NCBI GenBank assembly: GCA_040218735.1
Contig: JAVJQW010000008.1
Coordinates: forward strand, 160,001-224,000
Reading direction: 5' to 3'
Length of the DNA stretch: 64,000 nucleotides
From: Deltaproteobacteria bacterium
GTDB taxonomy: Bacteria; Myxococcota; Kuafuiibacteriia; Kuafuiibacteriales; Kuafuiibacteriaceae
The position numbers and the translations under genes are program-made. Shown in pieces: positions 1,096-24,241 of the stretch (positions within the stretch are counted from its first letter, which is position 1; each line of letters starts with the position of its first letter). The notes beneath the pieces were generated by a model. It did no database searches, had not been told where the DNA came from, and saw nothing but the letters and a program-made list of their open reading frames with translations.

Positions 1096-1163
1096 CGGTG
1101 CGCAGACTGGACACCGAATACATGAAAGTCAAGTCGTGTATTTCGTGTCGCGAAACCGCGGTC

Positions 1164-2141: not shown

Positions 2142-2143
2142 GG

Positions 2144-4153
<2,010 letters not shown>

Positions 4154-4202
4154 GGCTCTGTCAGATTAGCAGGGTTCCTTTCCTGAAGCGCGTCGTCGCG
4201 GC

Positions 4203-6116
4203 ATGCTCCGGCGCACGATGACGAGCGCGGACTCCGATTACGCCGCAGTGTATACGGCTGCCTCCGATGACCCCGAGAAGTTCTGGCGCGCGGCGGCCGA
4301 ACGAATTCACTGGGAGCATCCGCCGGAACACGTCCTCGACGCGAATCACGCACCGCTCTATCGCTGGTTCGCAGGCGGCAAACTCAACACGGCGTACAAC
4401 GCGCTCGACCGTCACGTAGAGGAAGGTCGTGGTGATCAACTCGCGCTGATCTGGGACAGCCCGCTCGCGAGCGCAAAGCTTGCGCTCACCTACGCCGAGC
4501 TCCGCGACCGCGTTGCCCAGTTCGCCGGCGCGCTCGCCGCACAAGGCGTCGAGAAGGGCGACCGCGTCCTCATCTACATGCCGATGGTTCCTGAAACCGC
4601 CGTGGCGATGCTCGCATGTGCGCGCCTGGGCGCAGTGCACTCCGTGGTCTTCGGTGGGTTCGCTTCCGCCGAGCTCGCCAAGCGCATCGACGACGCTGCG
4701 CCGAAGCTCGTCGTCTCCGCGTCCTGCGGAATCGAACCCACCCGCGTCGTCGAATACAAGCCGCTGCTCGACGCCGCGATCGACATGAGTCGTCATCGCC
4801 CCGCGCGGTGCATCATCCTTCAGCGTCCTCAGGCCACCGCCGCCCTCGTCGAGGGCCGTGACCTGACCTGGGACGCCGCGCTCGAAGGCGTCGAGCCGCA
4901 CGACTGCGTGATGGTCGACGCCACGGATCCGCTCTATGTGCTCTACACCTCCGGGACGACCGGTGAGCCGAAGGGGGTCGTTCGCGACAATGGCGGGCAC
5001 GCCGTCGCGTTGTCCTGGTCGCTCGAACACGTCTACGGCGTGCGGCCGGGTGACGTGTTCTGGTCTGCGTCCGACGTCGGCTGGGTCGTCGGCCACTCGT
5101 ACATCGTCTACGCGCCGCTGATCCTCGGCGCGACGACCATCATGTACGAAGGCAAGCCCGTCGGGACGCCGGACCCGGGTGCGTTCTGGCGGGTGATCGA
5201 GGAGTACGGCGTTCGAGTGTTCTTCACCGCGCCGACCGCGTTCCGTGCGATTCGCCAGCAGGACCCGAACGGCGAGCACATCGGCCGCTACGATCTCTCC
5301 AAGTTCGAGGCGCTGTTCCTCGCCGGCGAGCGCTGCGATCCCGACACGCTGAACTGGGCGCGCGAGAGCCTCGGCGTCGACGTGATCGATCACTGGTGGC
5401 AGACCGAGACGGGGTGGCCGATGGTCGCGAATTGTCTCGGCATCGAGAAGCTCCCCGTGAAGCCCGGTTCCTCCACGCGGCCCGTACCGGGGTGGCGCGT
5501 CGAGGTGCTCGACGATCTCGGTCGGCCGGTCGAGGCCAACGTCGTCGGTAACATCGTCGTTCGGCTACCGCTCCCGCCCGGTGCGCTACCCACCCTGTGG
5601 AACGCCGACCAACGATTCATCGATGCGTACCTGTCGCGCTTCGACGGCTACTACCAGACGGCGGACGCCGGGTACCTCGACGAGGATGGGTACCTGTTCA
5701 TCATGTCGAGGACCGACGACGTCATCAACGTCGCGGGGCACCGGCTCTCCACCGGCGCGATCGAAGAGGTCCTCGCCGAGGTGCCCGACGTCGCGGAGTG
5801 CGCGGTGGTCGGTGCGACCGACGAGCTCAAGGGCCAGCGCCCGCTCGCGTTGCTCGTGCTCGACGCGAAGGCGACGCGCAGCGAAGAAGAGATCGAAGCG
5901 GAGTGCAAACAGCGCGTCCGCGATCGCATCGGGCCGATCGCTTCGTTGTCGCACGTGCTGGTCGTGAAGCGTCTACCGAAGACCCGCAGCGGAAAGATCC
6001 TCCGCCGCACGATGCGCGCGATCGCGGACGAGCAGCCCTATGATCTCCCCGCGACGATCGACGACCCCGCCATCCTCGACGAGATCAGCTCGGCGCTCGA
6101 TCGCACGCGCTCGTGA
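4203..6116 (+). CDS. prpE: Propionyl-CoA/acetyl-CoA synthetase family AMP-dependent ligase
   Basis: YTSGTTGEPKG AMP-binding motif, HSVVFGGFAS, DHWWQTETGW, LPKTRSGKILR; DHWWQTETGW and GHAVAL are PrpE-like. True start may be ATG 4218. Confidence 0.85.
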   Translation: MLRRTMTSADSDYAAVYTAASDDPEKFWRAAAERIHWEHPPEHVLDANHAPLYRWFAGGKLNTAYNALDRHVEEGRGDQLALIWDSPLASAKLALTYAELRDRVAQFAGALAAQGVEKGDRVLIYMPMVPETAVAMLACARLGAVHSVVFGGFASAELAKRIDDAAPKLVVSASCGIEPTRVVEYKPLLDAAIDMSRHRPARCIILQRPQATAALVEGRDLTWDAALEGVEPHDCVMVDATDPLYVLYTSGTTGEPKGVVRDNGGHAVALSWSLEHVYGVRPGDVFWSASDVGWVVGHSYIVYAPLILGATTIMYEGKPVGTPDPGAFWRVIEEYGVRVFFTAPTAFRAIRQQDPNGEHIGRYDLSKFEALFLAGERCDPDTLNWARESLGVDVIDHWWQTETGWPMVANCLGIEKLPVKPGSSTRPVPGWRVEVLDDLGRPVEANVVGNIVVRLPLPPGALPTLWNADQRFIDAYLSRFDGYYQTADAGYLDEDGYLFIMSRTDDVINVAGHRLSTGAIEEVLAEVPDVAECAVVGATDELKGQRPLALLVLDAKATRSEEEIEAECKQRVRDRIGPIASLSHVLVVKRLPKTRSGKILRRTMRAIADEQPYDLPATIDDPAILDEISSALDRTRS

Positions 6117-6498
6117 AGCTCCGCCTCGGCGGGAGGTTGTACATGCGGTGGAGCGTCGAGTGGTTGCGCAGACCGATCGCTTCGCGCGTGATCTTCAGAT
6201 CGAGCAACGCGCGCGCCGCGGCTTCGTACGCGTCGAGGTACGCCGCGCGCCGCGTCTCGTAGTTCGCCTCGGTCGATTCGTCGAGCGCGAGCGTCGAGGC
6301 TTCGAGCGCCAGCATCGCGTAGTCGACTTTCACGCCGGCGCGACCGAGCGACGCGGCCGTCTCGCGGCGGATCTCGATCTCGAGGGACTCTTGGCGCTCC
6401 TCGATCGAGAGGTGCGCTTCGAGGCGGTCGAGGTACGGGCTGGAGTGGCCGCGCGCCTTCATCGTCGACGCGAGCTCGCGGTAGCGGTTGGGCGCCAT
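6085..6498 (-). CDS. Hypothetical alpha-helical protein
   Basis: Protein-like composition (coiled, EIRRETAASLGR...REAIGLRNH); start taken at MAPNRY rather than the track start to avoid overlap with the divergent gene. Confidence 0.65.
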   Translation of the reverse strand: MAPNRYRELASTMKARGHSSPYLDRLEAHLSIEERQESLEIEIRRETAASLGRAGVKVDYAMLALEASTLALDESTEANYETRRAAYLDAYEAAARALLDLKITREAIGLRNHSTLHRMYNLPPRRSFTSACDRAPS

Positions 6499-6517
6499 CG
6501 TCGTTAGATTGTAGAGC

Positions 6518-6991
6518 ATGGCCGAACCTTCGCTGCGACTGATCGAAGCGCTCCGGCAGACGGCGGATCGCCTCGACGGTGGAGCCCCCTATCGCTGGAC
6601 GCACATGGGGTCCTGCAACTGCGGACACCTCGTACAGACGGTGACGAACAAGACCGCCGCCGAGATCCACGCCCGGGCGTTGGAGAAGGCGGGGGACTGG
6701 TCGGCGCAAGCGATCGATCACTGCCCGACGAGCGGTCTCACGATCGATCACATCATCGACGCGCTGCTCGGCCTCGGGCTCGGCCGGTCGGACATCGTCG
6801 AGCTCGAACGACTCGGCTCGCGCCGCGTCCGCCAGCGGCTGGACGGCGAGGTCTCGCACAAACGTCGGTCGGACGTCGTGCGGTACATGCGCGCCTGGGC
6901 CGTCCTTCTCGAAGAGGAGCTCGCCGAGCAGATCGCGGCGGTCGGGCAGGGCGGTACGGTGCGCAAGGCGCCGGTCCTCAGCCGAACGTGA
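6518..6991 (+). CDS. Conserved hypothetical protein with HMGSCNCGHL Cys/His motif
   Basis: 157-aa ORF, overlaps next gene by GTGA; motifs YRWTHMGSCNCGHL and HCPTSG. Confidence 0.75.
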   Translation: MAEPSLRLIEALRQTADRLDGGAPYRWTHMGSCNCGHLVQTVTNKTAAEIHARALEKAGDWSAQAIDHCPTSGLTIDHIIDALLGLGLGRSDIVELERLGSRRVRQRLDGEVSHKRRSDVVRYMRAWAVLLEEELAEQIAAVGQGGTVRKAPVLSRT

Positions 6992-7857
6992 CGAAGAACG
7001 CCGGGGGCCTCCGCGTCCTCATCGCGTACGTCGCTGCGATCGTCGCCGCCGTCGTCGCGGGCTGGCTCGCGCGCGCGATGCACCCGTGGTGGATCGTCGC
7101 CATCGCCGACGTCGCCGGGACCGCGGTGATCTTCGGCTTCAGCCGCGCCTACGACAACTCGAGCTTCTACGACGCGTACTGGAGCGTCGCGCCGCCGCTG
7201 ATCGGTGCGTACTTCGTTTGGGAGGCCGGCGCTTCGCCGCGGCTGCTGCTCGCACTCGTGCTGGTCACCGCGTGGGCGGTTCGGCTGACGTTCAACTGGT
7301 GGCGTCGCTGGGATGGGCTCACCCATGAGGACTGGCGCTACGTGGATCTTCGCGACCAGACGGGGCGCATGTACTGGGCCGTGAGTTGGCTCGGGCTGCA
7401 CCTGTTCCCGACCGTCCTCGTCTACCTCGGCTGCCTCCCGCTGTGGGCGGCCGCGGAGTCCGAGGTCGTGCTCGGCGTGGTCGACGCGGTCGCGGTGGTG
7501 GTGATGGGGGGCGCGATCACGATCGAGGCAATCGCGGATCGGCAGCTCTTTGCGCACGTCGCCGAGGGCGGTGGCGGTGTCCTCGATCGCGGCCTGTGGC
7601 GCTGGAGCCGACACCCGAACTACTTCGGCGAGCTCGCGCTCTGGTGGGGCGTCGCGTTGTTCGGCGTGGCGTCCGGCTCGCGTGAATGGTTCGTGTTCGC
7701 GGGCGCGGTCGCGATGACGGGCCTGTTCGTGTTCATCAGCATCCCGATGGTGGAGCGGCGATCGCTCGCGCGGCGTGGTGATGCCTTCCGCGCGTACTCC
7801 GCGCGGACGTCGATGTTGATCCCCTGGCCCCCCAAAGAACGCGACCGCGAGGCGTGA
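6988..7857 (+). CDS. DUF1295 family membrane protein (steroid 5-alpha-reductase-like)
   Basis: Multiple TM helices; NSSFYDAYWS, EDWRY, IEAIADRQL, GLWRWSRHPNYFGE motifs. Confidence 0.88.
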   Translation: MTKNAGGLRVLIAYVAAIVAAVVAGWLARAMHPWWIVAIADVAGTAVIFGFSRAYDNSSFYDAYWSVAPPLIGAYFVWEAGASPRLLLALVLVTAWAVRLTFNWWRRWDGLTHEDWRYVDLRDQTGRMYWAVSWLGLHLFPTVLVYLGCLPLWAAAESEVVLGVVDAVAVVVMGGAITIEAIADRQLFAHVAEGGGGVLDRGLWRWSRHPNYFGELALWWGVALFGVASGSREWFVFAGAVAMTGLFVFISIPMVERRSLARRGDAFRAYSARTSMLIPWPPKERDREA

Positions 7858-7956
7858 ACGACTCCGTTCGGGGCGCGCGGCGACGCGGCGTGCGCCTCGA
7901 GTCTCGCGGCGGGGGTACGTCTGCCCGAGCTGTCAGCGGTCGAACCCTCACTCGGC

Positions 7957-8003
7957 TTGACAGGCTCGTTGGGCTTAGTTAGTTTGTTGCCCGAACAAAC
8001 AAA
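7957..8003 (+). promoter_or_regulatory. sigma70-type promoter (TTGACA-17-TAGTTT) overlapped by a 25-bp ROK/XylR-type operator
   Basis: TTGACA at 7957-7962, TAGTTT at 7980-7985; imperfect palindrome TTAGTTTGTT-GCCCG-AACAAACAAA at 7979-8003, AT-rich island in GC-rich DNA; similar site at 20762-20786. Confidence 0.8.
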
Positions 8004-8039
8004 TGCTTCCTCCGCGGGAGCACGGATAGGGTTAATTCT

Positions 8040-9755
8040 ATGACACGGTCTCACCTGATGCGCTTCGCTCTCAGTTCCCTCCTCGCTGGCGCGGTCGCTT
8101 GCAGCGGCGGCGAAGACGACGACGACACCACGAACCCGCCCCGGGACGGCGGCGTCACCAACACCGAACGGGACGGCGGCGAGCCTCCCCGCGACGGCGG
8201 CGAGCCGGAGCGCGACGCGGGCATGGAAGACCCGATCCTCGTCTCCATCACCGTGGAGCCCGACACCGCCACGCTCGACATCGGCGCGACGCAAGGCCTC
8301 ACCGTCACCGGCACCTACGACGACAGCACGTCGGCCATCCTCACCGACGGTGTGACCTACCGGTCCTCCGACGACCTCGTCGCGACGGTCTCCGCGATGG
8401 GTTTGATCACTGCGGTCGACGTCGGCTCCGCCACCATCACCGTTTCGATCGACGCGTTCGAGGCGACCGTGGCCGTGACCGTCAACGCGATGCCCCCGGA
8501 TGACGTCTTCGTCGTGTTCGACGATGACTTCGGCGCTGACATCACGTTCGCGGATTTCGGCGGCTCCAACAACATGTACGAGGTCGACAACGGCATGGCG
8601 ATGGCGGGGACGTCATCGCTGCGCGTCGAGGTGCCCGCAAAGGGTTACACGGGCGGTGCCTTCGCGATCGCCGCGCCGCAGGATCTCACGATGTTCAACG
8701 CGCTGACCTTCTGGGCGCGTTCGAGCTCCGACCTCCCGCTCAACGTCACGGGCATCGCCAACGACGGCAACACCAACGTCTACCAGGCGGAGCTGAACGC
8801 CGTGCCGCTCACCGCCACGTGGACTCAGTTCGTGATTCCGATCCCGGACTCCTCGCGTCTGAGCGCGGTCAACGGACTCTTCCACTTCGCGGAGGGTTCC
8901 GAGGACGGTGCGTACACCATCTGGTTCGACCAGATTCAGTACGAAGTCATCGAGGCGTCGCGGCTCGGGACGCCGATGCCGGCCATCGCCACCGAGACGA
9001 TCATGCGTGACGTGGGTGCGACCTTCAACATCAACGGGACCTCGGTGACGACGCCGGTCGACGGCAATAACGTCACGATCTCGGCGCGGCCCCCCTACTT
9101 CACGTTCGCCTCTTCCATGCCTTCGGTCGCCACCGTCGACGCGATGGGGGTGGGTACGACGCTCGCGGAGGGCTCGACCGACATCACCGGCACACTCGCG
9201 GGCGTCGCCGCGGCCGGCACGCTCACCGTCAACGTGGCCGCACCGACGGTACCCACCGTCGCCGCGCCGACGCCGACGGTCCCCGCTGGCAACGTGATTT
9301 CGCTGTACAGCAACGCGTACACCAACTCGACGATCGACACGTGGTCCGCCGTCTGGGACAGCGCTGACGTCGCGGACGTGCAGGTCGCCGGCGACGACAA
9401 CAAGCTGTACACGAACCTCGTGTTCGCGGGCATCGAGTTCGTCGGTGGAAACTCGATCGACGCTTCGGCGATGACGCACTTCCACATGGACATCTGGACG
9501 GCGGACTCGACGGTGTTCCGCGTGAAGCTCGTCGACTTCGGCGCGGACAACGCCTTTGGCGGTGGTGACGACACGGAGCACGAGCTCACGTTCGACGGTG
9601 CCTCCACGCCGCCGCTCGCGACCGGTCAGTGGATGCAGCTCGAGCTTCCCATGACGGACTTCGTGAACCTCGCGAACGCCGCGAACATCTCGCAGATCGT
9701 CATCGTGGGTTCGACGAGCACCGTCTACGTCGACAACGTGTACTTCCATAACTGA
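8040..9755 (+). CDS. Lipoprotein with Ig-like (Big_2) domains and two carbohydrate-binding-like beta-sandwich domains
   Basis: Signal + lipobox AVAC; RDGG linker repeats; Big_2 (LVSITVEP...TYRSSDDLVATVSAMGLITAV; FASSMPSVATVD); CBM-like segments DLTMFNALTFWAR...WTQFVIPI...IWFDQIQY and NVISLYSNAY...DASAMTHFHMDIW...VYVDNVYF. Confidence 0.78.
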   Translation: MTRSHLMRFALSSLLAGAVACSGGEDDDDTTNPPRDGGVTNTERDGGEPPRDGGEPERDAGMEDPILVSITVEPDTATLDIGATQGLTVTGTYDDSTSAILTDGVTYRSSDDLVATVSAMGLITAVDVGSATITVSIDAFEATVAVTVNAMPPDDVFVVFDDDFGADITFADFGGSNNMYEVDNGMAMAGTSSLRVEVPAKGYTGGAFAIAAPQDLTMFNALTFWARSSSDLPLNVTGIANDGNTNVYQAELNAVPLTATWTQFVIPIPDSSRLSAVNGLFHFAEGSEDGAYTIWFDQIQYEVIEASRLGTPMPAIATETIMRDVGATFNINGTSVTTPVDGNNVTISARPPYFTFASSMPSVATVDAMGVGTTLAEGSTDITGTLAGVAAAGTLTVNVAAPTVPTVAAPTPTVPAGNVISLYSNAYTNSTIDTWSAVWDSADVADVQVAGDDNKLYTNLVFAGIEFVGGNSIDASAMTHFHMDIWTADSTVFRVKLVDFGADNAFGGGDDTEHELTFDGASTPPLATGQWMQLELPMTDFVNLANAANISQIVIVGSTSTVYVDNVYFHN

Positions 9756-9764
9756 GTCACCGCT

Positions 9765-11147
9765 GTGAAAGAGCTACGCTTCCCCGAATCGTTCGTGTGG
9801 GGCGTAGCCACGTCGGCGTTCCAGATCGAGGGCGCGACCGAGAAAGACGGTCGCGCCCCGTCGATCTGGGACACCTTCGCGGCTCGCCCGGGTCAGATCG
9901 CCGACGGGAGCGATGGCAAGGTGGCTTGCGACCACTACCATCGCTACCCCGAGGACGTCGGACTCATGAAGTCACTGGGCGTCGCCGCGTATCGGTTCAG
10001 CGTCGCGTGGCCGCGCATCCTCCCCAAGGGGCGCGGTCACGTGAACGCGGCCGGCCTCGACTTCTATGACCGCCTCGTCGACGAGCTCCTACGGGCCGGC
10101 ATCGACCCGTGGGTGACGCTCTATCACTGGGACCTCCCGCAGGCCCTCGAGGATCACGGCGGGTGGACGGAGCGCACCAGCGCGCACGCCTTCGTCGAGT
10201 ACGCGGACGTGGTCTCACGGCGCCTCGGCGACCGCGTGCAGCACTGGATCACGCACAACGAGCCGTGGTGCTCGAGTGTCCTCGGCTACGCGCAGGGGGA
10301 GCACGCGCCCGGCAAGCGCTCTTGGGCCGACGCGCTCGCCGCGTCGCATCATCTCTTGCTCGGGCACGGGTGGTCGGTCCCCGTGATTCGGTCCAACGCG
10401 CGGGGTGCGGAGGTCGGGATCACGCTGAACCTGACACACGTGGATCCCGCGAGTCCGAGTGAGCACGACGCGCACTTCGCGCGGGTCATCGACGGTGAGA
10501 TCAACCGGTGGTACCTCGACCCGCTGTTTCGGGGAGAATATCCCGCCGACATCATCGAGCATCACCGACGCGAGGGGCACATCTCGACGGACGAGCTGGA
10601 GTTCGTCGAGCTCGGCGACCTCAGCGTGATGCGTGCGCCCGTCGATTTCCTCGGCATCAACTACTACACCCGCGCGATCGCGCGGAGCCCGTGGGTCGAT
10701 GAAAGTGACAACCTCCCGCGGACCATCGAAGAGCCGTCGGACGACGTGCGATCCGACATGGGTTGGGAGCAGTGGCCCGACGGCCTTCAGAACCTCCTTC
10801 TTCGCGTGAACGACGAGTACACCCCGCCGAAGATCTACATCACCGAAAATGGCGCGGCGTTCTCGACCGGACCCGACGCCACGGGTCGCGTCCCCGACAC
10901 GCGCCGCCAGAGCTACGTCGAGGAACATCTGAGGGCTTGCCTCACCGCCATCGAAGCGGGCGTGCCGCTCGAGGGCTACTTCCTGTGGTCCCTCCTCGAC
11001 AACTTCGAGTGGGCCTATGGCTACGAGAAACGCTTTGGCATCGTATGGGTCGACTTCGAAACCCAGGAGCGCATCGTGAAGGACACCGGACACTGGTACG
11101 CGGACGTCATCCGCCGCAACGGTCTGACCGCGGAGCACGCAGCGTGA
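9765..11147 (+). CDS. bglA: GH1 beta-glucosidase (cytoplasmic)
   Basis: FPESFVWGVATSAFQIEG, TLYHWDLP, acid/base HNEP, nucleophile YITENG, DNFEWAYGYEKRFG. Confidence 0.96.
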   Translation: MKELRFPESFVWGVATSAFQIEGATEKDGRAPSIWDTFAARPGQIADGSDGKVACDHYHRYPEDVGLMKSLGVAAYRFSVAWPRILPKGRGHVNAAGLDFYDRLVDELLRAGIDPWVTLYHWDLPQALEDHGGWTERTSAHAFVEYADVVSRRLGDRVQHWITHNEPWCSSVLGYAQGEHAPGKRSWADALAASHHLLLGHGWSVPVIRSNARGAEVGITLNLTHVDPASPSEHDAHFARVIDGEINRWYLDPLFRGEYPADIIEHHRREGHISTDELEFVELGDLSVMRAPVDFLGINYYTRAIARSPWVDESDNLPRTIEEPSDDVRSDMGWEQWPDGLQNLLLRVNDEYTPPKIYITENGAAFSTGPDATGRVPDTRRQSYVEEHLRACLTAIEAGVPLEGYFLWSLLDNFEWAYGYEKRFGIVWVDFETQERIVKDTGHWYADVIRRNGLTAEHAA

Positions 11148-14100
11148 TCCGCTCGTCCCTCGTCGCCATCGCCATCCTGACCTCCGCCCCGGCATGGGCA
11201 CAGTCGTCGACCAGCTCCACGACGACGACCGCGTCGGTCGCCGCCCGCCCACCGCCCGCCGAATCCCCGCCGGTTCGCCGCTTTCAACCCACCCCGCGCG
11301 CCGAAGGGGCCCCGCACGTCGTGAAGACGTACCGCGACGAGCGGGGCCACCTCCTCCTCGTCGACGGCGTCCCCACGATGGTCTACGGGATGAACTGGGG
11401 CTACATGCCCATCGGCGAGAACTACTCGTACGACTTCTGGGGCAAGTCCGATGACTTCATCCGGGAGGCCCTCGACGCGGAGATTTCTCTGCTCCGCAAG
11501 ATGGGGATCAACGTCATCCGCCAGTACATCGGAATCCCCGCGAAGTGGATTCGGTACATCTACGAGAAACACGGAATCTTCACGGTCCTCAACCACCCCA
11601 TCGGCCGCTACGGCATGAACATCGACGGGGTCTGGGTGAGCCCCGTGGACTACTCCGACGAGCGAATGCGCGAAGTCATCCACGAAGAGATCGATGCGCT
11701 CGTCCGAAAGTACAAGGACGTCCCCGGCTTGATGATGTGGATGCTCGGGAACGAGAACAACTACGGCCTGTATTGGAAGTCGACGGAGATCGAAGACCTC
11801 CCCGAGGAGCAACAAGGCGATATCCGGGCGAAGTATCTGTACTCGCTGTTCGGCGAAGTCATCGATCGGATCCACAACCTCGACAGCAACCACCCGGTCG
11901 TCATCGCCAACGGCGACGTCGGGTTCATCGATGTCATCGCCGAGGAGTGCAAGAACGTCGACATCATGGGTTCGAACGTCTACCGCGGCGCCTCGTCGCG
12001 CGACCTCTTCGAAGTCATCGAGAAGAAGCTCGGCGTCCCGTTCATGTACACGGAGTTCGGCTCCGATGCGTTCGACGCCAAACGGATGCGTGAGGACCAC
12101 CTCGCACAGGCGGAGTACCTGCGGCTTCAGTGGCAGGAGATCTACGAACAGTCGTACGGCCACGGGAACGTAGGCAACGCGATCGGCGGGATGATCTTCC
12201 AGTGGAGTGACGGGTGGTGGAAGTACAAACAGACCGAGAACCTCGACGTCCACGACGAGACCGCCTCCTGGGCCACCGGCGCGTACCCCCACGACTACGT
12301 GGAGGGGCAGAACAACATGAACGAGGAGTGGTTCGGTATCGCGGCGAAGGGGCGCAACGACGAGCGCGGGCTCTACGAGGTCTACCCGCGGAGCGCCTAT
12401 TACCTGCTGCGCGAGGCCTTCCGCCTCGACCCCTACGCACCCTCCACGACCAACGAGAGGATCCGCGAGGTCTTCGGCGCCCTCGATCCGAAGGACTTCC
12501 AAGCGCGCTACGAAGCCACGCAGCTACGCTCGAAGATCGACTTCCTGGAGCGCGTCCGGCTCTCCCAGCTTCGGCTCGATCTCATGACCTTCACGACGGG
12601 TGGAAAGAACCTCAACATCGACGAACGCGAGCCGCGTCGCTTCGACCACCTCCAGTCCGCCTACGTGGGCATCGAGGCGCGCCCCGCCTCAGGCGTCCGT
12701 GCGGACGCTACGGTCAACGTCCTCGGCAACGTCGCGGTCAACCCCATCGACGAGATCTACTTCGAGCGCCGCGGGATCCCGGAAGAGGTTCGCAACACGG
12801 CCGGGGAGGAGGTCGTCCTGACCAGTCTCGAGCGTGTGAAACTCTACCAAGCATCCTTCGAGTGGGAGAACGACTGGTTCGCGGTCGAGGGCTACTATCG
12901 CAAGGGGCACTACCATTGGGGTTACGAGGGTGACTTCTTCGGGCTCTACCCGGAGGCCAACTACGAGCAAGCCGTCGATCAGTTCAACGCCGACACACCC
13001 AGCGGTGTCGTCTTCACCGGTAAGAAGGCGTTGGACGGCCTCAAGATCGCGTTCGGTCCGCAGCTCTACTGGGGCGCGAACCCAACGGTCATCTCGAAGT
13101 ACTACCGAACGATCGGCGACTGGGAGTTTTCTCTCATCCACCAGGAGGACATCGCCCAGCAGGCCTCCGCGCTGACCAGCTCGATCATCCCGCAGCCTCG
13201 AACGCGAAAGTCGACGATCTACGCAGCGCGCGAGTGGGGGCCGCTCAAACTTCAGGTCGGTGGAATCATGGCGGGTACGGACCGGCTGGGCCGTCGCTAC
13301 GTCTCCATCGAAGAGGCCGCCGAACCCACGTATCTCGAGTCAGGCTACTACGTGCTCGACGACGAGATCGAGCTGATCGACACCCTCGGCGCCAAGGCGC
13401 GCGTCACGCTCAACCTCAACCCCTTCTACTGGTACGTCCAGGGTGGCTACCGCGGGTTGGTCGCCGATGCGGGTGGTGACTGGTCCCTCAACATCACGAA
13501 CTGGTCGATGAAGGAGAGCGGGCAGGGCAACCACTGGGCGGTCTCGAGCGGCGCCGCGATGTACCTGGGTGACTTCGTCGTCGCGCCCAACTTCCTGTTC
13601 CAGAAGCCACTGGAGGGACCGCTGGTTCAGATCGAAGACGCGTTCGATCCGAACACCGGCACCTACTACCGCGGTGTCCTACCCAGAAACCAACTCAACG
13701 ATCCCTTCTGGGTTCGCTCCAACCGCGAAACCTACGGTTTCGAGCTCCTCCTCGCCTTCGATCCCACCCCCGACACGTTCATGTGGGCGTGGGACAACCT
13801 CCAGCGCGAGAACGCCTTCTTCACCGCTGCGCTCGACTTCACCTACAAGGTCCATCCCACGAGTCAGGATGCGGCGGTGGCCGTGGCGCAGGAGGGGTTC
13901 GTCTTCGCCTTCGCCGGGGCTGCTCCGGCTCGGAACCTCTGGGATGTGAGCCTCCGGACGATCTTCAACTTCCGCTCCGACATGCAGTGGGTCAACTGGC
14001 TCTACTCGGGCCGCGGGCAGGCGAACGGCGACGACGATCGCCTCGTCGTGCGGTACGGAACCTACGGTCGGTTCCGTTGGGATCAATTCGTCGCGCAGTA

Positions 14101-14359
14101 CCACGTCCGGCTCCACGACTGGGGCCCGTTCGATTACTACCGCGACTTCAACCTGACGTTCCCGCTCCAGACGTTGCTCGACATGAGCTACGCGTTGCAG
14201 ACGCCCGACTGGTTCGCGATCTCGCAGACGCGCCTCGGGCTGCGGGGTAAGTTCAGGTTGCTCGATGAGAACTCGGGGCGCTTCCAAGCCGACCCCGACG
14301 ATCCCGACGCGTTCGGCCAGGAGTGGGAGGTGCTCACCTATGTGCAGATCTCGATTTGA
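11144..14359 (+). CDS. Secreted clan GH-A (GH2-like TIM barrel) glycoside hydrolase fused to a probable C-terminal outer-membrane beta-barrel
   Basis: Start at GTG 11144 overlapping the GH1 stop; signal peptide VIRSSLVAIAILTSAPAWA; catalytic motifs LGNENNY and FMYTEFG; from ~12560 about 600 aa of amphipathic, aromatic-rich strands ending WEVLTYVQISI. Confidence 0.8.
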   Translation: MIRSSLVAIAILTSAPAWAQSSTSSTTTTASVAARPPPAESPPVRRFQPTPRAEGAPHVVKTYRDERGHLLLVDGVPTMVYGMNWGYMPIGENYSYDFWGKSDDFIREALDAEISLLRKMGINVIRQYIGIPAKWIRYIYEKHGIFTVLNHPIGRYGMNIDGVWVSPVDYSDERMREVIHEEIDALVRKYKDVPGLMMWMLGNENNYGLYWKSTEIEDLPEEQQGDIRAKYLYSLFGEVIDRIHNLDSNHPVVIANGDVGFIDVIAEECKNVDIMGSNVYRGASSRDLFEVIEKKLGVPFMYTEFGSDAFDAKRMREDHLAQAEYLRLQWQEIYEQSYGHGNVGNAIGGMIFQWSDGWWKYKQTENLDVHDETASWATGAYPHDYVEGQNNMNEEWFGIAAKGRNDERGLYEVYPRSAYYLLREAFRLDPYAPSTTNERIREVFGALDPKDFQARYEATQLRSKIDFLERVRLSQLRLDLMTFTTGGKNLNIDEREPRRFDHLQSAYVGIEARPASGVRADATVNVLGNVAVNPIDEIYFERRGIPEEVRNTAGEEVVLTSLERVKLYQASFEWENDWFAVEGYYRKGHYHWGYEGDFFGLYPEANYEQAVDQFNADTPSGVVFTGKKALDGLKIAFGPQLYWGANPTVISKYYRTIGDWEFSLIHQEDIAQQASALTSSIIPQPRTRKSTIYAAREWGPLKLQVGGIMAGTDRLGRRYVSIEEAAEPTYLESGYYVLDDEIELIDTLGAKARVTLNLNPFYWYVQGGYRGLVADAGGDWSLNITNWSMKESGQGNHWAVSSGAAMYLGDFVVAPNFLFQKPLEGPLVQIEDAFDPNTGTYYRGVLPRNQLNDPFWVRSNRETYGFELLLAFDPTPDTFMWAWDNLQRENAFFTAALDFTYKVHPTSQDAAVAVAQEGFVFAFAGAAPARNLWDVSLRTIFNFRSDMQWVNWLYSGRGQANGDDDRLVVRYGTYGRFRWDQFVAQYHVRLHDWGPFDYYRDFNLTFPLQTLLDMSYALQTPDWFAISQTRLGLRGKFRLLDENSGRFQADPDDPDAFGQEWEVLTYVQISI

Positions 14360-14963
14360 CGCCGTCTGGCTCCTTCCGGCGGTCATCGCCCTCCTCGCGG
14401 GGTGTGAGCTCGATCCGCAGCGCTATCGCTACGGCGAGAACATCACCGGGCTCCAGTTCGAGTACTTCGACGAGACCGAAGGGGTGCATCCGAGCCAGGT
14501 CGTCCTGCTGAACCCGAACAACCCATTCGTCGAGGCCCCGATCGGCGCCGAAACGAAGTTCGACCTGCTCACGGGGGGCGGAAACGCCGCCGGCTTCTAC
14601 GCGTGGGCCACGCTCCTCGCGACGGGCGCGAACGGCGAGAATCAGTTCTACGCGGCGACCAAGCTCCGCGACGTCTACTACGCGAACGAGGTGCCGCCCG
14701 AGGACTCCGAGAAGGTCCGCCTCCTCGCGATCGCCGCGTTTCAGTCGGTGCTCGACAACTTCCCGGACTCGGTGACCTTCGACGCGTCGGGCACGATCCC
14801 GTTCCCGCTCGCGACGCCCGCCTTCCAGGCGATCGTCGACCTCAACGGGCGACCCGAGGGTGACTGGGCGCTCGTGCAGGACGTGAACGGGAACCCCGTC
14901 GCCGTGAAGCGCGCGGGCGTCGATATCCCCCGCACCGTTGTGGAGGAGGAGGACGACTCTTGA
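14340..14963 (+). CDS. Hypothetical lipoprotein with TPR-like helical pair, in the beta-glucan operon
   Basis: ATG 14340 overlapping upstream stop region; lipobox LLAGC; helices ENQFYAATKL and LAIAAFQSVLDNFPDS. Confidence 0.7.
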   Translation: MCRSRFDAVWLLPAVIALLAGCELDPQRYRYGENITGLQFEYFDETEGVHPSQVVLLNPNNPFVEAPIGAETKFDLLTGGGNAAGFYAWATLLATGANGENQFYAATKLRDVYYANEVPPEDSEKVRLLAIAAFQSVLDNFPDSVTFDASGTIPFPLATPAFQAIVDLNGRPEGDWALVQDVNGNPVAVKRAGVDIPRTVVEEEDDS

Positions 14964-15631
14964 GGTACGTCAACGCAGCCTGCGTGGCACTGCTCGTCAC
15001 GAGCGCGTGCCGACTCGACCCCGGAACGCCCGACTATTCGGGCCACGTCGGACTGTTCGAGCCGGACGGCGACACGGAGCCCGTCGATGGGCCCGACCCC
15101 TACGAACCCGGCGAGGCGCGCCTCGCGTTCGGGTTGTTCTACGAGGGCGGGTTCTCGGACGTCATCGCGAGCAACGGAACGACCATCAACTACTTCATCT
15201 TCGTCATCGAGGGGACGTCCCAACTCACCTACGCGCAGGAGCCCTCGGACGATCGGGTCGAGGGGGTCGTGTCGGATCAAATCACCCTGGAGGGGACGCC
15301 GTTCTGGGGCGGCGGGTTCGTCTGGAACGAACCCATCGACATCTCGGAGTGGACTACGATGTACGTGAGTTTCAAGTCGAGCGACCCCTCGTTCGAAACC
15401 TTCGACCTTCAGGTACAATCGGGCGCGGGGGCCGCGGCCACCAACCTCGACCCGCGCGACTACGGCTACGTCAACGACGGCGAGTGGCACAACCTGGCCA
15501 TCCCCGTGCAGGACTTCGTCGCGGCCGGGTTCGACCCGGCCCAGACGCGTTCGCCGTTCATCCTCGCGTCCCCCGGAGGAGACGCGGGTGACGTGCTGCT
15601 GGTCGACAACCTCTACTACACGCAGGACTGA
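14960..15631 (+). CDS. Lipoprotein with carbohydrate-binding-like beta-sandwich domain
   Basis: Lipobox TSAC; PIDISEWTTMYVSFKS...DGEWHNLAIPVQDF...LLVDNLYYT pattern of galactose-binding-like CBM folds. Confidence 0.72.
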   Translation: MRYVNAACVALLVTSACRLDPGTPDYSGHVGLFEPDGDTEPVDGPDPYEPGEARLAFGLFYEGGFSDVIASNGTTINYFIFVIEGTSQLTYAQEPSDDRVEGVVSDQITLEGTPFWGGGFVWNEPIDISEWTTMYVSFKSSDPSFETFDLQVQSGAGAAATNLDPRDYGYVNDGEWHNLAIPVQDFVAAGFDPAQTRSPFILASPGGDAGDVLLVDNLYYTQD

Positions 15632-15633
15632 AG

Positions 15634-17052
15634 TCAGGCCGCTCCGCGGCGCTGTTCCAACTCGCCCCGAATCTCCAGCGCTCGGTCTTCGGTGATCTCG
15701 TACCGAGCAATGAGCCAGATCGCGATCATCGAAGTCGCGGCAGGGATGAATGCGTCGAAGGCTCGCATCAGCATGATCGCCTCCGACGTCTGCTGGCCGT
15801 CGAGCTCGACGTCGAAGCCGGTGGCGTTGAGCAGGAAGCCGCCAGCGGCGAGCGCCGCCGCCATACCGAGCTTCACGACCCACCAGAAGATCGAGCCGAA
15901 CATCCCCTCCCGGCGCTGCGCGGTCTCGAGCTCGTCGAGGTCGACGACGTCCGCCACCATCGAAGGCATCAGCGTGAACAGGCCGCCGAGCCCGAACGCG
16001 AGGAAGGGCGCCGGCAGCACCACGAGCCACGGGTTGTTCGGGTCGTAGCAGAACCACTTCATGATGTAACCGAGCACGGACACGCCGGTCGTCAGGAAGA
16101 AGGCGCGCCGCTTTCCGAGCTTCGTGCCGAGGGCGGTGGCGATGATGATGACGACGAACGTCGAGACCGCGGAGAGACTCCCGGCGTAACCCGCGTACTC
16201 CGCTCCGGCGACTTTGTCGCCGCCGCACACGTAATAGATGATCACGTAGGACTGAAACGAAGAGATCAGCATGAAGCCGTTGAAGACGAGGAACGTCGCC
16301 CCGCACAGCTTCTGAAAGGGTCGGAACTTAAGCGTTGCACCGAATCCCTTGAAGAAACTCACGAGCTCTTCCCCGAGCCTCTTCTTGGCGCGCTCCGCTT
16401 TGGCGGGGCCGAGGCGCTCCCGGAGGAAGAGCGCCGGTAGAACGCCGATGCCCATCGTGACGACGCCGATGATGACGGCGAGACCGGCCGCGCCGTCCAT
16501 CATGTCGTCGAAGTAGTCCTCGGCCTGCATGAAGGCGAGGAACCAGGGCGACACCACGTACGCGAGCTGCCCGAGGAAGTTCTGGACGCCCATGAGGCGA
16601 GTGCGTTCGTGGTAGTCGGGCGTCAGCTCGTAGCCGAGCGCGACCCAGGGCGTCGCGTACATCGTGTACGCGAGGTAGAAGACGATGGATCCTGCGAGGA
16701 AGTAGACGAAGTAGAAGGTCTCGCTCTTGTCGCTCGGGAACTGCCAAAGAAGGATGAAGACCACGCCCGCGGCGAGCGCCCCGATGAAGATGTACGGGCG
16801 CCGGCGCCCCCACTTCGACTGGGTCTGGTCCGACACGTAACCCATGAGCGGGTCGGTCAGCGCGTCGGTGAGGCGGGGCAGCGCGCCGAGGAGTCCGACG
16901 AGCGCTGGGTTCATGCCGAGCCCGAGGTTCAGCACGATCGTCATCCCACCGATCGCCGCTGCGAGTAAGTTGTTGATGAGTGCGCCGAGGCCGTAGATCA
17001 GCTTGGCGGCGAAGGTGATTCGGTCTTCGGGGCGCGTCGTGTGGTCGCTCAT
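15634..17052 (-). CDS. MFS transporter, glycoside-pentoside-hexuronide (GPH) family sugar permease
   Basis: About 12 TM; DALTDPLMGYVSDQTQSKWGRRRPY, ELTPDYHERTRL, RREGMFGS motifs. Confidence 0.92.
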   Translation of the reverse strand: MSDHTTRPEDRITFAAKLIYGLGALINNLLAAAIGGMTIVLNLGLGMNPALVGLLGALPRLTDALTDPLMGYVSDQTQSKWGRRRPYIFIGALAAGVVFILLWQFPSDKSETFYFVYFLAGSIVFYLAYTMYATPWVALGYELTPDYHERTRLMGVQNFLGQLAYVVSPWFLAFMQAEDYFDDMMDGAAGLAVIIGVVTMGIGVLPALFLRERLGPAKAERAKKRLGEELVSFFKGFGATLKFRPFQKLCGATFLVFNGFMLISSFQSYVIIYYVCGGDKVAGAEYAGYAGSLSAVSTFVVIIIATALGTKLGKRRAFFLTTGVSVLGYIMKWFCYDPNNPWLVVLPAPFLAFGLGGLFTLMPSMVADVVDLDELETAQRREGMFGSIFWWVVKLGMAAALAAGGFLLNATGFDVELDGQQTSEAIMLMRAFDAFIPAATSMIAIWLIARYEITEDRALEIRGELEQRRGAA

Positions 17053-17879
17053 CGAGGCGCCCGCTCGAACACGCGCACGTAATCGACGAGCATCTCGGCG
17101 GGGAAGACGGTGTCCGAACCGACGGGCCCGACGAAGCTGCCGCCGACCGCAACGTTGAGCAGGAGGAAGAACGGGTGATCGAACACCCAGTCACCACGCG
17201 CTTGGACCTCGGGGGTCGTGACGACCTGATAGACGACGTCGTCGACCAGGAACGCGATTCGCCCCGGATCCCACTCCACGGCAAAGATGTGGAAGTCATC
17301 CGTGAAGCTCTCGTCCTCGGGGAGCGCGAACTTACTCGTAATGGGGCTGCCCCCCGAGTAGCCGGGTCCGTGCAGCGTGCCGTGGACGACGCGCGGCTCT
17401 TGGCCGCGGAACTCCATGATGTCGATCTCACCCGCGCGGGGCCAGTCCGTCTCGGGGAAGTTCGCGCCCAGCATCCAGAACGCGGGCCAGATGCCCTGCC
17501 CCGGGGGGAGCTTGATGCGCGCTTCGAAGCGCCCGTACTTCTGCTCCACCAGGCCCTTGGACTTGATGCGCCCCGAGGTATACGCGCGGCCCATGTAGTC
17601 TTCTTCGCGGGCGACGATGCGGAGGTTTCCGTTGCCGTCGTGGGAGACGTTCTCGGTGCGGTCGGTGTCGAACTCGAGCTGGTTGTTGCCCCACCCGTCG
17701 CCGCCGACGTCGAAGGTCCACATCGCGGGATCCGGCGACGTGCCTTCGGCGCCGTCGAACTCGTCGTACATCGTCACGATCCAGGACACGGGTGGCTCCA
17801 CGACCGGACCTTCTCCAATCTCACATCCCACGATGCTCGCGGCGATGACGACGACCCACGGCTTGAAACCAACCATCAT
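17049..17879 (-). CDS. GH16 endo-beta-1,3-glucanase (laminarinase-type), lipoprotein
   Basis: Lipobox IVGC; GWGNNQLE, YTSGRI, GIWPAFWMLG, catalytic GEIDIME, FHIFAVEW, LLNVAVGG. Confidence 0.93.
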   Translation of the reverse strand: MMVGFKPWVVVIAASIVGCEIGEGPVVEPPVSWIVTMYDEFDGAEGTSPDPAMWTFDVGGDGWGNNQLEFDTDRTENVSHDGNGNLRIVAREEDYMGRAYTSGRIKSKGLVEQKYGRFEARIKLPPGQGIWPAFWMLGANFPETDWPRAGEIDIMEFRGQEPRVVHGTLHGPGYSGGSPITSKFALPEDESFTDDFHIFAVEWDPGRIAFLVDDVVYQVVTTPEVQARGDWVFDHPFFLLLNVAVGGSFVGPVGSDTVFPAEMLVDYVRVFERAPR

Positions 17880-19117
17880 GTGCTTCCCACTGCCGCGACC
17901 ACGCGGCTGAACATCTCGGGGTTCTCGAGCGCCGATCTGAGAACCAGCGTCGCGGCCCCGACCGCGATTCCTTGTTCATCGAGCTCGCTCCGGAGGATCT
18001 CCGCGTGTGCGATCGAGTCGGCGAGGGAGAGGCGCGACACGGTATCGCGGAGCGGTTCGAGGAGGAGATCTCCGACCCGCATCAAACCGCCGCCGAGCAC
18101 GACCATTCTCGGGTTCAGCAGATTGAGCATGTTCGCGACGCCGATACCGAGCTGCCGTCCGGCGTAGGCGATGACGGCGACGGCCGCTTGATCACCGGCG
18201 AGGGCGTCGTCGACCAGCGCGTCGATCGTCTTGGGAGGCTCGCCTTCGCCGAGCGCGCGATACTCTTGCTGCGCACGCTCGAGGAGCGCGGCGCTGCCCA
18301 CGAGCGTCGTCAGGCAGCCGCGTAGCCCGCAGGAGCAGAGCGGTCCGTTGGCGTCGATCGACGTGTGGCCGATCTCCCCCGCGGCGCCGCCGCTACCGCG
18401 GAAGATCTCACCGTTCATGATCAGCCCGGCGCCGATGCCGGTCGCGACCTTGATGTACGCGAGGTCACTCACCGTCCGGCCCGCGCCCCACCAGCGCTCC
18501 GCGAGCGCGCCGAGGTTGGCGTCGTTGTCGAGCACCACCGGCGAACCGATGCGCGCCTCGAGCTCTTCGATGAGGTCGATGCCCTCCCACTTCGGAATCA
18601 CCGAAGGCAGGAGCTTCCCGGGTTCGGCCGGGTTGAGCGGGCTCGGTACGGCGACGCCGACGCCGACGAGCGACGACGGTTGGGTGCCGTTCGCCAGGCA
18701 GACCTCCAGCACGAGGCGCTTCATCGCCGAGAGCGCCTCCTGGGGAGCGTCACGGACCGGCACGGAGACGGAGCGGTACTCCGAGACGTTGGCGCGGAGG
18801 TCGGTGAGTACGACGGAGACGTGCGTAGCGCCGAGCTCGATCCCGACGATGTTGCTCGCCGCGTCCGAGAACTCCAGGAGGATGGGGCGGCGGCCGCCGG
18901 TCGAGAGACCCGCGCGCGCCTCCCGCACCAAGCCCGTTTCGAGGAGGTCGCTGACGATCGCCGAGACGGTGGAGCGGCTGAGTCCGGTACGACGCGAGAG
19001 GTCGGCGCGGGAGATCGATCGCTCGCACCAGAGCAGGTTGAGGAGGAGGCGGCTGTGCTGGGCTCGGATCGCCGAGGCGCCCAGCACTTCGTCGGGTCTG
19101 TGCACGGTGCGGATCAT
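17876..19117 (-). CDS. ROK family transcriptional repressor (XylR/NagC-like)
   Basis: N-terminal wHTH ISRADLSRRTGLSRSTVSAIV...GGRRP; DNDANLGALAE; AGEIGH...CSCGLRGCL zinc motif. Confidence 0.93.
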   Translation of the reverse strand: MIRTVHRPDEVLGASAIRAQHSRLLLNLLWCERSISRADLSRRTGLSRSTVSAIVSDLLETGLVREARAGLSTGGRRPILLEFSDAASNIVGIELGATHVSVVLTDLRANVSEYRSVSVPVRDAPQEALSAMKRLVLEVCLANGTQPSSLVGVGVAVPSPLNPAEPGKLLPSVIPKWEGIDLIEELEARIGSPVVLDNDANLGALAERWWGAGRTVSDLAYIKVATGIGAGLIMNGEIFRGSGGAAGEIGHTSIDANGPLCSCGLRGCLTTLVGSAALLERAQQEYRALGEGEPPKTIDALVDDALAGDQAAVAVIAYAGRQLGIGVANMLNLLNPRMVVLGGGLMRVGDLLLEPLRDTVSRLSLADSIAHAEILRSELDEQGIAVGAATLVLRSALENPEMFSRVVAAVGST

Positions 19118-19138
19118 GATGGACGGCGCCGCCTCGTG

Positions 19139-20755: not shown

Positions 20756-20761
20756 GGGGAC

Positions 20762-20809
20762 TTATTTCGTTCGCCGAACAAACTAAGTCCCTCTCCGGGG
20801 CAGTGTCAA
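20762..20809 (-). promoter_or_regulatory. sigma70-type promoter (TTGACA-18-TAGTTT) overlapped by second ROK/XylR-type operator
   Basis: Minus strand TTGACA at 20809-20804, TAGTTT at 20785-20780; operator TTAGTTTGTT-CGGCG-AACGAAATAA at 20786-20762, 7 nt from the ATG at 20755. Confidence 0.8.
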
Positions 20810-24153: not shown

Positions 24154-24241
24154 GGGCCGTGAACCTGGCAGACGCCGGACGTCGCCGTCTAGGGGGTGAC
24201 TAGGGGTGGCGTCGCGCGACGTCGGGAGGCAGGCTCGGTGC

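Follow-up and report, generated by a model that had tools for sequence, protein, structure and literature searches.

How does a β-1,3-glucan enter a Gram-negative cell whose genes for using it include no TonB-dependent transporter? Laminarin and other β-1,3-glucans are among the largest marine and fungal carbon pools, and models of their uptake by Gram-negative bacteria rest on SusCD or TonB-dependent transporters. The question is raised by a ten-gene glucan locus in a deltaproteobacterial genome of the phylum Myxococcota (GenBank assembly GCA_040218735.1, contig JAVJQW010000008.1), of which we analysed the 64,000 nucleotides from position 160,001 to position 224,000 of the forward strand; this whole stretch is referred to as the window, and all coordinates are given within it. 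The locus contains a gene for a single protein that joins a glucanase of the glycoside hydrolase (GH) family 158 type to a large β-barrel. On balance, we favour the reading that this fusion is the outer-membrane entry gate for β-1,3-glucan in a cluster lacking a TonB-dependent transporter. A role in glycan entry at the outer membrane is likely; that the barrel acts as the channel is our reading of its predicted fold together with the gene context. The fusion gene and its parts are as follows.

11144–14359, + strand: fusion gene, 1071 aa, encoding a signal peptide, a GH158-like glucanase, a linker helix and a predicted outer-membrane barrel of ~26 strands
11144–11200, + strand: signal peptide, residues 1–19, with likely cleavage between AWA and Q (APAWA before the site, QSS after it), judged by eye
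11201–11314, + strand: Ser/Thr/Pro-rich low-complexity N-terminal tail, residues about 20–57, read from the sequence
11315–12457, + strand: TIM-barrel domain of clan GH-A, closest to GH158, residues about 58–438
11753–11755, + strand: candidate acid/base Glu204, in the motif GNENN
12053–12055, + strand: candidate nucleophile Glu304, in the motif YTEFG
12488–12547, + strand: hydrophilic helix of 20 residues (449–468) just before barrel strand 1, pLDDT 82–87 in the AlphaFold2 (AF2) model
12554–14356, + strand: predicted transmembrane β-barrel of ~26 strands, residues 471–1071, with long conserved aromatic and acidic loops

A large transmembrane β-barrel is the high-confidence prediction for the C-terminal half. 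Residues 440–1071 were aligned with 57 homologues, and the resulting 58 sequences served as input to AF2. The model (mean predicted local distance difference test score (pLDDT) 93.8, pTM 0.87, no segment below 50) consists of one helix followed by ~26 long antiparallel strands that close into a barrel, a strand count taken from DSSP on the model that may be off by two. A Foldseek search of the PDB returned at least 410 matches at E ≤ 1e-3, and the 44 matches listed are all outer-membrane barrels, among them MOMP, TonB-dependent transporters, Occ channels, AlgE and OmpF-type porins. VIA-align, which is independent of Foldseek, gave AlgE as the top match (Z 14.8, 275 residues aligned, rmsd 5.3), and also aligned the translocation domain of FimD (Z 14.3, 348 residues aligned across model positions 30–632), PapC (Z 13.3, 354 aligned), Wzi (Z 12.4), PelB (Z 11.9), MtrB (Z 10.9), PgaA (Z 9.8), maltoporin 1mpr (Z 11.5), 5mdo (Z 11.2) and many barrels of TonB-dependent transporters, such as BT1762 (Z 12.3) and FyuA (Z 12.0).

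The sequence carries the same signature. Averaged over the 26 predicted strands, the hydrophobicity of the two faces differs by 2.32; segments of equal length drawn 500 times from the GH domain give 1.37 ± 0.18 (maximum 1.86). Strands 2, 8, 10, 14, 16, 20 and 22 are each followed by a turn of two residues and strand 4 by one of three, with the long loops mostly after odd strands; this asymmetry is usual for outer-membrane proteins and places both ends of the barrel at the periplasmic face. The protein ends in TYVQISI, its final residue being Ile, and the last residue of the 58 aligned members is hydrophobic or aromatic in 55 (F 21, L 15, I 11, Y 6, W 2, other 3). A closed antiparallel barrel, hydrophobic strand faces, a Sec signal peptide and a C-terminal β-signal, the marks of an outer-membrane barrel, are all present, and we infer that the barrel is inserted in the outer membrane. 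A preliminary description of this DNA, made from the letters alone, had likened these ~600 residues of alternating strands to a barrel inserted by the β-barrel assembly machinery; the model, the amphipathicity and the terminal motif bear it out, and the structure prediction and Foldseek search that it proposed returned a single barrel, with no β-sandwich among the matches listed. Conservation in the barrel is highest in long loops of aromatic and acidic character, HYHWGYEGDFFGLYPE and NDPFWVRSNRE being two examples, and these loops may fold into the barrel lumen.

The enzyme half is closest to GH158. The fusion gene, of which the genome has one copy, starts with GTG and shares the letters GTGA with the stop codon of the upstream GH1 gene (4 nt overlap). 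Its N-terminus (VIRSSLVAIAILTSAPAWA, followed by QSS) reads by eye as the signal peptide that had been claimed for it; the Ser/Thr/Pro-rich tail behind it was not seen among the homologue N-termini compared. Pfam recognised only PF02836 (GH2 TIM barrel) in the enzyme half, at residues 108–212 and on the borderline (21.1 bits against a cut-off of 21), and an NCBIfam scan of the fusion protein gave nothing useful. In the PDB, the N-terminal domain is matched best in sequence by two GH158 endo-β-1,3-glucanase structures, 9oro (E 1.4e-5 over residues 169–309) and 6pal (E 3.1e-4), both distant, partial matches from the single sequence; a family profile matched 6pal at E 1.6e-11. The segment LGNENN aligns with LGNESE of 9oro and IGNEIE of 6pal, and YTEFG aligns with VTEFG and ITEWG of the GH158 structures, so that both the NE and the TE motif of clan GH-A are in place and the assignment of a GH-A TIM barrel with two catalytic glutamates, Glu204 and Glu304, holds. 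Both glutamate motifs are kept in a homologue of 46% identity. The N-terminal half is accordingly termed GH158-like, and an endo-β-1,3-glucanase activity is predicted for it.

The barrel belongs to an undescribed family. Its half of the protein has no sequence match in Pfam, NCBIfam or the PDB, and a family profile run against the PDB matched no chain in the barrel part. As a query it retrieves at least 3344 proteins at E ≤ 0.001 (7999 candidates scored), the best 120 of which share 45–62% identity with it and come mostly from metagenome-assembled genomes (MAGs) of Myxococcota; an exhaustive search of representatives at 50% identity gave 391 matches at E ≤ 0.001 and 107 at E ≤ 1e-30. Within the phylum, the barrel is present in 74 of 301 sampled genomes and in 23 of 137 genera. 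Database names for the family are 'hypothetical protein', 'beta-galactosidase' and 'GH2 TIM barrel domain-containing protein'. Most long members share the GH158-like N-terminal domain (31–62% identical to the present one), and stand-alone barrels of ~560–625 aa with their own signal peptides also occur; ten of these matched no Pfam family, DUF6029 included, at E ≤ 0.1. In the ESM Atlas the nearest clusters are unnamed and largely from Bacteroidota (0.96–0.94), which serves as a lead only, and the nearest named cluster is DUF6029 (0.92, 158 shared features), a resemblance at the level of the language model only; the fusion protein has no Pfam match to DUF6029 (PF19494). A literature search found no description of a GH158–barrel fusion in full texts, taken without supplementary files, where cluster tables could mention the gene. 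Two members depart from the common architecture: P0208 carries a CBM4_9 domain ahead of the GH–barrel fusion, and in P0125 (1351 aa) ~340 aa are added at the N-terminus, beginning with a stretch that resembles the start of the GH domain.

The usual outer-membrane route for such a glucan is missing from the surroundings of the gene. The fusion protein itself has neither the Plug domain (PF07715) nor a PF00593 match at Pfam E ≤ 0.01 and so does not group with TonB-dependent transporters or SusC. The genome contains 16 PF00593 and 17 PF07715 matches, all of them off the contig of the window, which has no match to either family; SusD (PF07980) has 0 matches in the genome, which is 96.5% complete. 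In five related genomes, the contig that bears the barrel is without PF00593 in four, and in the fifth the nearest match is 168 kb away. Custom hidden Markov models (HMMs) of the Plug and of the barrel, built from the transporters of this genome and able to recover held-out controls, gave 0 matches in 29 homologous loci (~20 kb each) or in the 64-kb window, and ten large unexplained flanking open reading frames (ORFs) contain no TonB-dependent transporter domains. The earlier statement that the locus has no TonB-dependent receptor or SusD thus stands for the window and its contig, and it extends to homologous loci, which had been named as the place to check it.

The remaining genes of the glucan locus (8040–24363, both strands, ten genes) are listed below.

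8040–9755, + strand: lipoprotein with Big_2 and carbohydrate-binding module (CBM)-like domains, a candidate glycan-binding protein; the LipoB profile matches its homologues in other loci
9765–11147, + strand: GH1 β-glucosidase (Pfam E 1.8e-164), overlapping the fusion start by 4 nt
14340–14963, + strand: lipoprotein LipoA, lipobox LLAGC, ATG at 14340, 20 nt overlap with the fusion gene
14960–15631, + strand: lipoprotein LipoB, lipobox VTSAC, TTG at 14960, 4 nt overlap with LipoA
15634–17052, − strand: MFS_2 sugar transporter of the inner membrane (Pfam E 5.3e-62)
17049–17879, − strand: laminarinase-type GH16 lipoprotein (Pfam E 1.6e-26), lipobox IVGC
17876–19117, − strand: ROK regulator or kinase with an N-terminal winged helix (Pfam E 1.3e-61)
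19139–20755, − strand: lipoprotein with Cys-repeat motifs and CBM48/AMPK-CBM-like domains
20806–24363, − strand: GH149 β-1,3-glucan phosphorylase (NCBIfam NF058639, 1446.7 bits against a cut-off of 1150)

The enzymatic logic of this locus is catabolic throughout. The content for β-1,3-glucan use that had been read from the sequence was recovered by Pfam and NCBIfam as GH1, MFS_2, GH16, ROK and GH149, and no synthase, glycosyltransferase, OPX or PCP gene was found in the locus, nor a synthase or glycosyltransferase gene flanking it. Gene neighbourhoods were compared in 28 loci of closer relatives (Myxococcota; two are the same place) and in 20 further loci across the phylum. GH1 precedes the fusion in the closer relatives wherever the DNA extends far enough, and it adjoins the fusion in all 20 phylum-wide loci, which also contain GH16 (17 of 20), ROK (12 of 20) and GH149 (7 of 20). 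The lipoprotein at 19139–20755 (538 aa) has five Cys-bounded motifs of ~20 residues (C-T-D-x-x-A-x-N-[FY]...D-D-G-S-C) and two CBM48/AMPK-CBM-like domains, and no family spans the whole protein.

LipoA and LipoB directly follow the fusion gene in 27 of the 28 closer-relative loci, and the 28th stops within the barrel gene. Their lipoboxes are conserved across orthologues, and the gene overlaps of 20 nt and 4 nt, together with the motifs LLAGC and VTSAC, agree with the two translationally coupled lipoprotein genes of the preliminary description. The mature LipoA (186 aa) is modelled by AF2 (pLDDT 86.9) as a small helical domain of the tetratricopeptide repeat (TPR) type with two short hairpins; VIA-align matched it to generic TPR proteins and to BamD at Z 8–9, a level common for helical repeats. 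It falls in no sequence family: a PDB profile search gave nothing significant, Foldseek returned no match at E ≤ 0.001, and Pfam returned none at E ≤ 1 save a chance FimH hit, so that LipoA does not classify as SusD. LipoB has a CBM-like C-terminal domain, with weak matches to Exop_C (Pfam E 6.8e-4) and to CBM11 (PDB E 0.13), the CBM11 and CBM30 structures of the PDB matching no better than E 0.13, and its module recurs in larger lipoproteins of the loci. The two lipoproteins are unrelated to each other (hhalign probability 0.3%). Long forms of LipoB (811–821 aa) occur in three related Myxococcota loci (L015:12527–14989, L019:2711–5143 and L021:3790–6252), and those of L015 and L019 carry a C-terminal GH17 β-1,3-glucanase domain (Pfam E 1.1e-8 and 6.9e-8).

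Complex prediction, which had been proposed as a check, was run for the barrel with LipoA. The ipSAE was 0.51 (runs 0.47–0.55) compared with 0.00 for all three controls, with contact agreement of at least 94% between runs and a partner pLDDT of at least 79, a result that weakly supports docking. On calibration, the mark used in this test was reached by 58 of 80 solved complexes and by 2 of 110 mismatches; at scores of 0.60 or lower it was passed by 7 of the 80 solved complexes and by both mismatches. Of the earlier proposal that the two lipoproteins are the partners of the fusion, what stands is the synteny among closer relatives and this score for LipoA; a general partnership does not, as neither gene is found in 8 of the 20 phylum-wide loci. 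LipoA and LipoB are therefore not obligatory parts, and are probably lineage-specific accessory lipoproteins that would dock on the barrel and capture glycan.

A metagenome contig provides a view of the barrel without its enzyme. In L032 (positions 1093–12854), the genes run in the order barrel, LipoA-like lipoprotein, SBP_bac_5, two permeases, two ATPases and GH1. The barrel (588 aa) stands alone and ends in YTHKF. Over its first ~150 residues the lipoprotein (P0273, 560 aa) is a homologue of LipoA (hhalign probability 99%, E 5.6e-18), and the remainder consists of two CBM11-like repeats, to which LipoB has no significant similarity (hhalign probability 2.3%). Because stand-alone barrels occur in glycan-import loci with a LipoA-like lipoprotein, the barrel has a role without the enzyme. 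As far as sequence homology goes, P0273 shows that the LipoA module travels with the barrel over a large evolutionary distance, and since this module and CBM modules can form one protein, LipoA-type and LipoB-type functions are tied together. Kuhaudomlarp et al. 2018 (PMC5827456) describe Type I GH149 clusters of Proteobacteria without an outer-membrane transporter gene, and the arrangement in L032 looks like these clusters.

These observations can be assembled into a route of uptake. The plug-less, TonB-independent barrel would be the outer-membrane passage for β-1,3-glucan (laminarin or fungal glucan) or its oligosaccharides, the tethered glucanase would shorten the glucan chain at the pore, the cleavage products would cross the inner membrane via the major facilitator superfamily (MFS) transporter, and the cytoplasmic GH149 phosphorylase and GH1 glucosidase would consume them. 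The default position of the enzyme is the periplasmic mouth, because strand 1 begins on the periplasmic side and is preceded by a linker of only ~30 residues; here the enzyme would cut the chain as it leaves the pore, and cutting would render entry unidirectional. For the enzyme to be at the cell surface, the linker helix would have to pass through the lumen; the enzyme would then lie beside the GH16 and CBM lipoproteins. We lean towards the periplasm by the slightest of preferences. A more specific version is a 'thread-and-cut' translocon, in which intact β-1,3-glucan captured by CBM lipoproteins threads the plug-less barrel and is cut by the GH158-like domain at the periplasmic exit, so that hydrolysis, and not a proton-motive force relayed by TonB, makes uptake one-way; this version is tentative, and we consider it doubtful. 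The preliminary description had already cast the fusion as the outer-membrane channel: the predicted barrel fold and the absence of a TonB-dependent transporter from the contig and from the 29 loci are in keeping with this, and the function as a channel is still deduced from fold and context.

Several points weigh against an entry gate. With no plug, an open 26-stranded barrel would have to be occluded. Polysaccharide exporters (AlgE, Wzi, PelB and PgaA) and pilus ushers are among the best structural matches, and the direction of transport cannot be read from the fold alone. GH158 is matched only distantly (E 1.4e-5 with the single sequence), and because of this it is mainly from context that we infer glucan as the substrate. 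With regard to LipoA, predicted complexes that score in the band reached here would be wrong more often than right unless the pairing was likely beforehand. In the eight phylum-wide loci without LipoA and LipoB (L042–L047, L049 and L051), neither is detected even by HMM and the fusion is the last gene of the operon; in five of the eight, a LipoA homologue is absent from the whole genome (genomes 93–99% complete). Finally, 16–17 TonB-dependent transporters are encoded elsewhere in the genome of the window, and one of them could be co-regulated with the locus.

Among the other explanations, the one that survives best is an autotransporter-like self-display, in which the barrel exports the N-terminal glucanase and anchors it on the surface, with helix 449–468 in the lumen and the products entering by other means. 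Type Va autotransporters, which have 12-stranded barrels, share such a layout of passenger, helix and barrel, and the fusion has the corresponding order of signal peptide, N-terminal passenger, hydrophilic helix of ~20 residues and C-terminal barrel. The pLDDT of the helix (82–87) points to a helix that is packed in the model, not a free one, a cell-surface location has been reported for the GH158 glycosidase of Bacteroides uniformis, and the CBM4_9 domain of P0208 lies before the GH domain. However, ~26 strands is far above the 12 of type Va, and Pfam gives no autotransporter match, so that the protein does not classify as one. Furthermore, glycan-import loci contain barrels that have no passenger at all and are accompanied by a LipoA-like lipoprotein, and no other outer-membrane entry route was found encoded in the loci. 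For these reasons we regard self-display as rather unlikely.

Much less probable is an export porin, in which the barrel would secrete a β-glucan exopolysaccharide and the fused hydrolase would trim or clear the chain in the periplasm. Analogues exist in the enzymes AlgL, BcsZ, PelA and PgaB, which stand beside the barrels AlgE, BcsC, PelB and PgaA, and exporters are at the top of or high among the structural matches (AlgE, Wzi, PelB and PgaA, with the Z scores given above). The nearest named ESM Atlas cluster, DUF6029, points the same way, since this family is linked to Wzi-like barrels by Saidi et al. 2022 (PMC9603273). Yet neither the fusion nor the ten stand-alone homologues have a Pfam match to DUF6029, and the locus contains none of the synthase, glycosyltransferase, OPX or PCP genes that were looked for. 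The neighbours that are kept are those of catabolism and import, namely GH1, GH16, GH149, an MFS transporter or an ABC importer dependent on a solute-binding protein (SBP), and ROK or glucokinase. A soluble string of CBM-like or Ig-like β-sandwiches on a secreted glucanase is the usual architecture of large secreted glycosidases and would suit the names 'beta-galactosidase' and 'GH2 TIM-barrel protein' given to relatives by annotators, but it is scarcely credible here and is ruled out as a fold for the C-terminal half by the single closed barrel of the AF2 model (pLDDT 93.8), by Foldseek and VIA-align matches that are, among those listed, solely membrane barrels, and by the lack of any CBM or Ig Pfam match in that half.

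Other genes of the window were noted in passing. The glucan locus is flanked on one side by a sterol-reductase-like gene of the ERG4/ERG24 family (25261–26553, − strand, E 1.5e-46), which a short-chain dehydrogenase gene adjoins, and on the other side by a gene for a DUF1295 membrane protein (6988–7857, + strand). Further away lie a 747-aa ORF with a DUF1552 (HXXSHH) domain (30824–33067, − strand, E 8.4e-56) and a hybrid sensor histidine kinase (2144–4153, − strand), for which the closest NCBIfam models are the myxobacterial EspC/EspA kinases, far under their cut-offs.

If the fusion is the entry gate that we favour, its importance lies in the step that it would supply. Many laminarin loci have no SusCD or TonB-dependent transporter gene, and the barrel family is located where the missing step is expected. 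Were the barrel a channel, annotation pipelines would be overlooking how a major flux of carbon enters the cell, and the fusion of enzyme and channel would represent a new design for nutrient uptake. Should the more doubtful thread-and-cut mechanism be true, it would be a third principle of glycan import across the outer membrane, beside SusCD/TonB-dependent transporters and passive sugar porins, and would fill the outer-membrane transporter gap of SusCD-less and Type I GH149 laminarin clusters. The family is found in complete, single-contig genomes of 9–13 Mb of the phylum and in an Archangium MAG; for this reason it may be open to genetics in cultivated myxobacteria, and it could bear on their feeding on fungal cell walls.

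Each of the parts described here (a GH-A glucanase, an outer-membrane barrel, a TPR lipoprotein and CBM lipoproteins) is known, and the combination is not. The enzyme half resembles the GH158 glucanases BuGH158 (6PAL) and GH158(Pro) (9ORO) in its clan GH-A TIM barrel, in the aligned NE and TE motifs and in its place in a β-1,3-glucan locus; the solved chains, unlike the fusion, have 407–424 residues and no membrane barrel, and the similarity is distant. A 2026 paper on GH158 (PMC13195107) contains the terms 'outer membrane' and 'porin' 0 times.

With LptD–LptE, MtrB–MtrA/C and the ushers FimD and PapC, the fusion shares a barrel of 24–26 strands, an N-terminal periplasmic domain on the same chain, if the enzyme is placed there, and a partner lipoprotein encoded alongside. 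These systems differ in their cargo (lipopolysaccharide, electrons and pilins, respectively), have no sequence similarity to the fusion and carry no glycosidase. AlgE, PelB, PgaA and Wzi are glycan-conducting barrels, and AlgE (Z 14.8) has the closest fold of all. Exopolysaccharide export systems, too, pair a barrel with a periplasmic glycan-cleaving enzyme. Their barrels have 16–18 strands and belong to biosynthetic operons, whereas the present locus is catabolic and its barrel has no DUF6029 match.

The sugar-specific diffusion channels LamB (maltoporin) and ChiP (chitoporin) are TonB-independent barrels for oligosaccharide entry (1mpr Z 11.5, 5mdo Z 11.2), as is proposed for the fusion barrel, whose conserved loops are rich in aromatic residues. 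Channels of this type are trimers of 16–18-stranded barrels and lack both a fused enzyme and a dedicated lipoprotein, and LamB and ChiP show no sequence relationship to the fusion barrel. From the same phylum, GluM of Corallococcus sp. EGB (Li et al. 2019) is reported to be an outer-membrane β-barrel β-1,6-glucanase; its reported activity is on β-1,6-glucan, and GluM and the fusion are likened by description only. The SusC/SusD and TonB-dependent glycan transporters, like the system proposed here, have a large barrel heading a glycan locus together with lipoproteins that are helical and TPR-type or bear CBMs. LipoA (186 aa) is nevertheless much smaller than SusD, which has a TPR core in about 500 aa, and has no SusD Pfam match, and the fusion differs from SusC in having no Plug or PF00593 domain, in its ~26 strands as opposed to 22, and in carrying an enzyme domain in the place of the plug.

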